From the IMG/VR virus record IMGVR_UViG_2531839485_000010: DNA of 27,146 nt; one strand, 5' to 3'. The first letter of the stretch is position 1; each line of letters opens with the position of its first letter. The position numbers were made by a program, and so were the translations under genes. The notes under the pieces were generated by a model. That model had not been told where the DNA came from, ran no database searches, and was given only the letters and a program-made list of their open reading frames with translations. Positions 1,153-1,307 of the stretch are shown here, piece after piece. The DNA comes from a virus (taxonomy: Duplodnaviria > Heunggongvirae > Uroviricota > Caudoviricetes).

Positions 1153-1154
1153 TT

Positions 1155-1190
1155 AGACATTTTCTCTAGAAAATGTCTGCGCGCTTTTCA
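1155..1190 (+). terminator. Perfect 10-bp inverted repeat (AGACATTTTC-tcta-GAAAATGTCT) 3 nt after the int stop, followed by GCGCGCTTTT; candidate int terminator or sib-like processing site
   Basis: Read directly: arms 1155-1164 and 1169-1178, loop TCTA, T-run 1185-1188. Confidence 0.45.
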
Positions 1191-1307
1191 CTCAACTTTA
1201 TTTCCACACTATAAAAACACAGAATCATAAGGAAAATTTGGAGGTATCTACAAAACTTGATAATATCGTGACATTTTCACAAACAGAGCAACAGGATAGT
1301 AGCCAAG

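Follow-up and report, generated by a model that had tools for sequence, protein, structure and literature searches.

A perfect palindrome between the integrase and acyltransferase genes in the left arm of a probable argW prophage of the P22-like group

P22-like phages form two classes according to the position of attP, which lies 3' of int in P22 and 5' of int in Sf6, HK620 and CUS-3. KplE1, HK620, Sf6 and CUS-3 share one conserved recombination module at argW, with the core CTGCAGGGGACACCAT and an intS promoter that overlaps attL (PMC2951348). In the Sf6/HK620/CUS-3 group, int starts ~160-176 bp downstream of its promoter and of the att core, which is the argW 3' end, and its transcription runs away from the att site, toward the lysogenic-conversion gene and the tailspike gene. 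With both elements 5' of int and int reading away from them, int and the acyltransferase gene are adjacent in the phage and in the prophage alike, and the spacer between them is ordinary DNA. Since the two attP classes exist, the position of int beside a conversion gene does not by itself indicate an excised genome. In phage lambda, sib lies beyond attP as seen from int, and integration uncouples sib from int.

Here we analyse such a pair of neighbouring genes in a stretch of viral DNA of 27,146 nucleotides (IMG/VR record IMGVR_UViG_2531839485_000010), called the window in its full length. It is very probably the left arm of a P22-like (Lederbergvirus) prophage of the Sf6/HK620/CUS-3 type, inserted at the host argW gene for tRNA-Arg(CCT), in which the spacer after int is ordinary intergenic DNA and the hairpin in this spacer would be a weak terminator or 3'-end stem-loop. 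The genes and intergenic elements at its left end are the following.

1-1152, plus strand: int, gene of an IntS-type tyrosine integrase of 383 aa (ORF list, Pfam, nucleotide identity).
1153-1307, plus strand: AT-rich intergenic spacer of 155 bp from int to the acyltransferase gene, not an att site (GC content, integrated copies, motif searches).
1308-2365, plus strand: gene of an Acyl_transf_3 membrane acyltransferase, an oac-like lysogenic-conversion gene (ORFs, Pfam PF01757 on both pieces).
2448-2468, no single strand: canonical GC-containing hairpin flanked by T-runs on both strands (terminator scan, called on the minus strand).
2475-4298, minus strand: gene of a P22-type tailspike of 607 aa, convergent with the acyltransferase gene (Pfam Head_binding).

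The window opens exactly at the int ATG, and the int stop codon, TGA, occupies positions 1150-1152. At the nucleotide level this gene is 96-98% identical to the int genes of Sf6, HK620, CUS-3, HF4s and N7. Its product contains the Pfam domains Arm-DNA-bind_3 (DUF4102; PF13356), Phage_int_M (PF22022) and Phage_integrase (PF00589), the first of them N-terminal, as is characteristic of the IntS-type integrases of the Sf6/HK620/CUS-3/KplE1 module; the RefSeq orthologue in E. coli 730V1 is annotated as 'prophage integrase IntS'. The ORFs of the window also have the order that the module requires, with int followed by the conversion gene and then by the convergent tailspike gene, as in Sf6, HK620 and CUS-3. 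The RefSeq orthologue of the tailspike is annotated as 'phage head-binding domain-containing protein'. The spacer has a GC content of 34.2%, as compared with 47.7% for int, 29.0% for the acyltransferase gene and 46.5% for the whole window; the end of the spacer was set by the next ATG-initiated ORF, which starts at 1308.

A previous sequence-only reading of this locus had reported int next to the acyltransferase gene, an AT-rich spacer of 155 bp at 1153-1307 and a hairpin after the int stop, and we confirm these coordinates and features. Its identification of the two following genes as 'oac' and tailspike is correct at the family level; the acyltransferase is only 36% identical to Sf6 Oac, over 118 aa, and is frameshifted here. 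The arrangement as such is the textbook Sf6/HK620-type layout, already known and of little biological weight, and all of its testable defining features are present. The only new items are the rare acyltransferase/tailspike cassette and the unusually perfect palindrome at its joint with int.

We infer that the start of the window at the int ATG was cut by the prophage-calling step and has no biological cause. At the other end, position 27146 lies inside the phage, ahead of the early-left region; the RDF/xis gene (a TorI/HkaC homologue), which in this module belongs across attP from int at the far end of the prophage, would fall beyond the window. Altogether, the window has the look of a called prophage whose left side was trimmed to a gene boundary and whose right side was truncated where the contig ends, with attL and attR outside. 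Two IMG/VR contigs (L007 and L008), one of which has a size of 26,937 bp, also carry the hairpin at 1155-1178 and appear to share the first base of the window. The host contig L005, introduced below, stops ~26 kb past the int start. Two adjacent phage tRNA genes, tRNA-Thr(TGT) and tRNA-Asn(GTT), lie on the minus strand at 24295-24450, upstream of the lysis genes.

The window itself begins at the int ATG, and its integrated state is deduced from copies that differ from it by one or two bases. An exact-protein look-up of the window integrase gave 12 contigs, and the flanks are described here for two of them, L004 and L005 (GCA_000357005.2); these are parts of E. coli chromosomes, with 1 and 2 base differences from window positions 1-6152, respectively. 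Upstream of int, both contigs carry fadL, yfdF, mlaA, yfdC and the tRNA-Arg(CCT) gene argW, with 161 bp between its 3' end and the int ATG. Downstream, they continue with int, an identical spacer, the split acyltransferase gene, the tailspike gene and ant. The complete genome of E. coli O19:H7 730V1 has the same succession of argW, int, spacer and acyltransferase gene, and there too argW ends 161 bp before the int ATG. In L004, L005 and 730V1 alike, the att core is the 3' end of argW (CTGCAGGGGACACCA), situated within the expected ~160-176 bp 5' of the int ATG and oriented as int.

Host-flanked copies thus keep the spacer uninterrupted, so that integration leaves int and the acyltransferase gene side by side. 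No host DNA splits the spacer in any of three integrated contexts; the only break seen is an IS5-family element accompanied by a CTAG duplication. The sequence-only reading had named host flanking sequence, with the att core elsewhere, as the finding that would make the spacer ordinary intergenic DNA, and this is what the host-flanked copies contain. It had also considered an attP upstream of int and outside the window: this location is correct, and the layout, which had been called unusual for a prophage, is the canonical one of Sf6, HK620, CUS-3 and KplE1 (PMC2951348).

Motif searches gave a consistent picture. The argW core TCCTGCAGGGGACACCA, with up to 3 mismatches allowed, has no match in the whole window, and no attR core is present there. 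The IntS arm-type motif GGGTAAAAW, which is that of the attP repeats annotated in HK620, is absent from 1153-1307 at up to 1 mismatch, and its count across the window is at chance level. The search of the spacer for identity to a host tRNA 3' end, which the sequence-only reading had recommended, was negative, as 1153-1307 contains neither the argW core nor any tRNA-like sequence; a tRNA scan found only the phage tRNA-Thr and tRNA-Asn genes at 24.3 kb. The sbcB-type core of Sf101/2851 has no match in the window.

The spacer begins with a palindrome, around which a longer structure can be drawn.

1154-1179, plus strand: perfect stem-loop, 2 nt past the int stop, with CTAG in the loop (inverted-repeat search, RNA folding).
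1140-1194, plus strand: predicted extended helix (RNA folding, prediction only).

The two arms of the inverted repeat, 1155-1165 (AGACATTTTCT) and 1168-1178 (AGAAAATGTCT), are 100% complementary over 11 nt and stand 2 nt apart. The perfect inverted repeat of 10 bp first noticed here is therefore real, with arms that are slightly longer. As RNA, the repeat gives a stem of 11 pairs (10 Watson-Crick, one G-U) closed by a 4-nt loop, with a dG of -11.6 kcal/mol and a z of -5.6, and none of 200 shuffled sequences was as stable. The 27 kb contain only three perfect inverted repeats (at 1155, 6569 and 22460) whose arms measure at least 10 nt and whose loops measure 2-8 nt, against 0.15 expected from first-order Markov simulations; in simulated copies of 1153-2474, such a perfect inverted repeat arose in 3.5% of the trials. 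The hairpin is non-random. The inverted repeats at 6569 and 22460 are probably intergenic terminators or operators.

In the predicted extended helix, the last int codons (UGAUGGGAA) would pair with UUUUCA.CUCA around the core hairpin, and CUUUAUUU comes next. The fold of 1140-1210, with a dG of -17.7 kcal/mol and a z of -4.1, contains this longer helix, made of the last int codons and the downstream UUUUCACUCA. Rfam gave no match at E<=1 over 1000-2600. None of the small ORFs in the spacer exceeds 31 aa and none is convincing; a consensus scan for promoters and terminators called no site inside the spacer.

Candidate signals for the expression of the acyltransferase gene are found in the remainder of the spacer.

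1187-1215, plus strand: second promoter-like site, TTCACT-17-TATAAA, with weaker support (hexamer scan).
1238-1266, plus strand: best candidate promoter for the acyltransferase gene, TTGGAG-17-TGnTAATAT, of the extended -10 type (hexamer scan).
1270-1278, plus strand: third copy of the hairpin-arm 9-mer GACATTTTC, shortly past the candidate -10.
1293-1296, plus strand: AGGA, Shine-Dalgarno-like, 11 nt from the acyltransferase ATG and conserved in the diverged Escherichia whittamii copy.

The candidate promoter at 1238-1266 (TTGATAATAT) is below the threshold of a standard scan. It is wholly conserved in the diverged E. whittamii copy and stands 42-70 nt upstream of the ATG, as compared with 31-59 nt for the 'putative oac promoter' of Sf6. 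The -10 of the second site is not conserved and reads TAGACG in E. whittamii. Both candidates are weak matches and are to be taken as predictions. The AGGA at 1293-1296 is a plausible ribosome-binding site. A weak promoter and a Shine-Dalgarno motif in the spacer would allow the AT-rich acyltransferase gene to be expressed separately in the lysogen. By analogy with Sf6 and HK620, the spacer should both end the int transcript and start that of the conversion gene.

In the window, a frameshift splits the acyltransferase gene into the ORFs 1308-1547 and 1595-2365. It arises at the A-run 1510-1516, which consists of seven A (a 1-nt deletion) in the window, L004, L005 and IMGVR_2534682327. Eight A, as present in both 730V1 copies, IMGVR_2563366923 and E. 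whittamii, give an intact protein of 354 aa. The shorter run may come from a mutation that inactivated the gene in one lineage, from slipped-strand variation or from an error in sequencing the homopolymer. Past the gene, the plus strand of 2448-2468 reads AGGCATCCAAAATGAATGCCT and then TTTTTTATT; placed between the convergent acyltransferase and tailspike genes, this element is likely a bidirectional terminator, and its position matches that of the 'putative terminator for oac' of Sf6.

The cassette formed by the spacer and the acyltransferase gene is rare. It was found in 1 of 5426 complete E. coli genomes, that of 730V1, which has two copies, and deposited phages showed no DNA homology to the spacer or to the acyltransferase gene, even at blastn sensitivity. 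An exact search for the hairpin returned no genome contigs and, from IMG/VR, 2 contigs that do not differ from the window there. In metagenomes, a conserved 21-mer retrieved 1 contig, again identical to the window. Protein-guided scans yielded one useful diverged copy of the cassette, that of E. whittamii. All the full spacer copies are identical and hence offer no covariation in support of a structure.

In the argW prophage of 730V1, an insertion sequence of the IS5 family, ISKpn26, has inserted exactly in the hairpin loop and duplicated CTAG, while int and the acyltransferase gene are both annotated as intact.

L001 7169-8368, corresponding to window 1166-1169: ISKpn26 in 730V1, by which the palindrome is split.

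The second 730V1 copy, with hairpin, spacer, acyltransferase gene and tailspike gene, is at the end of another P22-like prophage, beside dacD (L006 7676-8160). It starts with a ~55-bp relic of the 3' end of an IntS-type int, followed by the intact hairpin and spacer. An att core of the Sf101/2851 type, CGTAATCGTGAAA, is present ~325 bp upstream of the hairpin and ~270 bp beyond the int relic, outside the spacer; the sequence of this core was taken from PMC4159516. The diverged copy of Escherichia whittamii Sa2BVA5 (L012 3771-5065), with 95% protein identity, stands next to torT/torR/torC. It is preceded by a ~72-bp relic of the int 3' end, with no intact IntS gene adjacent. Its identity to the window is 78% in the hairpin, 87.5% in the rest of the spacer and 95% in the gene, and its hairpin is degenerate (-5.5 kcal/mol, z -1.4). 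The spacer is not an att site in any of the argW, dacD and E. whittamii contexts. The cassette evidently left an IntS phage with the last int codons attached and was transferred between phages with different integrases. Such a rare cassette may mark a particular O-antigen specificity.

What the hairpin does can be stated less firmly than where it lies. It would serve as a weak, non-canonical terminator or as a hairpin that protects the 3' end of the int transcript, a reading that we put forward tentatively, with somewhat less than even confidence. The suggestion of a terminator, already made from the sequence alone, is plausible, but the element is non-canonical and was not called by the consensus scan. 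Only 3 of the 11 pairs of the stem are G-C, and UUUU begins 7 nt past it; only the weaker, extended helix directly precedes CUUUAUUU. In other IntS phages (Sf6, CUS-3, HK620, Kapi1 and Louie), the 80 nt after the int stop fold with z values of -0.1 to -1.8, none of them significant; with no comparable fold in these relatives, the post-int hairpin is therefore not a conserved requirement. That it has decayed in E. whittamii, in a copy that lacks int, would suit a function linked to int as well as the lack of any function.

This last possibility, that the palindrome is functionless, a product of chance or history at a mosaic joint between the conserved int module and an imported, low-GC conversion/tailspike module, we consider unlikely, but it accounts for several observations. 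Homology to IntS phages stops within the last int codons (query 1144-1148), and the hairpin belongs to the rare module, which only that one genome among the 5426 complete ones of E. coli has and which the phage collection lacks. It has decayed faster than its surroundings in E. whittamii, and in 730V1 it is split by the IS element with both neighbouring genes still annotated as intact. On the other hand, only 3.5% of the simulated AT-rich copies contain a perfect inverted repeat whose arms reach 10 nt or more, and a distance of exactly 2 nt past the stop codon is the typical place of a transcript-end hairpin.

The 9-mer GACATTTTC brings in another kind of explanation. Its only occurrences in the 27 kb are at 1156 and 1270, plus one of its complement, at 1169; in E. 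whittamii, the counterpart of the copy at 1270 has one mismatch. The copy at 1270-1278 could be a half-operator or a coincidence. We give little credence to a broader proposal with two branches: either the palindrome, together with the third GACATTTTC half-site, is an operator through which a phage or host protein acts on the acyltransferase gene, or the joint of int 3' end and palindrome is a preferred recombination linker that moves the cassette among P22-like phages with different integrases. Taken by itself, a DNA operator that regulates the acyltransferase gene with the help of the half-site near the candidate promoter is very unlikely. Its perfect 11-nt arms only 2 nt apart, and the reappearance of the 9-mer 92 nt downstream, over the expected transcription start, would suit such an operator, and the chance of an extra copy of the 9-mer is ~0.002 by a rough, composition-based and post hoc estimate. 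But A-tract-rich AT sequence readily yields repeats of this kind, the palindrome is degenerate in E. whittamii although the acyltransferase is intact there, and we have no candidate for the binding protein.

It is highly doubtful that the extended hairpin at 1140-1194 is an RNase III processing site that would destabilise the int mRNA in the manner of lambda sib. The predicted helix, with ~22 pairs and internal loops, takes in the last int codons, is of a size found among RNase III substrates and lies directly 3' of int. However, it has no covariation behind it, its structure is lost in E. whittamii and relatives have no equivalent; the att site is at the opposite end of int, so the element would act identically in phage and prophage, and the published regulation of intS is autorepression at the promoter (PMC2951348). 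A switch of the lambda sib type that senses integration is excluded: with the att core 5' of int, int and the hairpin stay linked in both states, as they do in the prophages. The same holds for the retroregulation site tied to integration state that had been proposed from the sequence alone, since attP does not lie between int and the hairpin.

Finally, the proposal that the spacer itself holds attP, the window being an excised, circular or vegetative genome with int joined to the conversion gene across attP as in P22, can be practically dismissed: the P22 attP core does sit between gtrA and the int 3' end, and the spacer is AT-rich with a palindrome at its start, but prophages at argW keep it unbroken, the window lacks the argW core and the spacer lacks arm-type sites and tRNA-like sequence, and the integrase is of the IntS type, whose attP is annotated 5' of int in Sf6, HK620 and CUS-3. 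As a candidate attP, 1153-1307 fails the core, arm-site and host-split tests alike, and we regard this part of the sequence-only reading as refuted. Its starting assumption, an attP between int and the O-antigen genes throughout P22/Sf6-type genomes, is valid for P22 and not for Sf6.

We thus retain, as very probable, an argW prophage of the Sf6/HK620/CUS-3 type with an ordinary spacer, and its comparison with described systems starts from P22. The two have virion genes of the P22-like kind in common, and in both a conversion gene adjoins the tailspike gene. In P22, int reads toward attP, whose core (21300-21322) is 31 bp past int, between int and gtrA in the order gtrABC-attP-int; in the window, int reads away from the att site and the spacer has no att elements. 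The likeness to lambda sib/tI consists in a stem-loop directly 3' of the integrase gene that can be extended to a longer helix. In contrast to lambda, the att site is here 5' of int, so integration cannot uncouple the hairpin.

KplE1 (CPS-53) of E. coli K-12 has an integrase of the same family, the att core CTGCAGGGGACACCA at a fixed distance 5' of int and the int promoter inside attL, and its int and RDF genes are separated by integration (PMC2951348). It differs in being a defective remnant of 10 kb, for which PMC2951348 describes neither a post-int hairpin nor an acyltransferase. In the CUS-3 prophage, the first base of the attL core precedes the int ATG by 191 bp and its 16th base by 176 bp, and int is followed by neuO and the tailspike gene.

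HK620 (AF335538) has its attP core and arm repeats 5' of int and, on the 3' side, a 'terminator for prophage excision transcript', an O-antigen modification gene and the tailspike gene. The resemblance extends to an AT-rich, imperfect hairpin a few tens of nt past the int stop, a short GC-containing stretch, a T-run and the co-directional O-antigen modification gene. Its sequence is a different one, with an imperfect hairpin at z -0.06 against shuffles, and its terminator is a prediction of the annotators.

Sf6 (AF547987) has an int 96.7% identical to that of the window at the nucleotide level, and its attP core lies inside gene 17. Its spacer and acyltransferase gene are unrelated to ours at the DNA level, and no perfect 11-nt palindrome follows its int. 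The two loci nonetheless share the entire plan: the attP core 5' of int, int itself (gene 16 in Sf6), a spacer of 155 bp with the 'putative oac promoter', an Acyl_transf_3 oac gene (gene 15), a terminator and a convergent tailspike gene.
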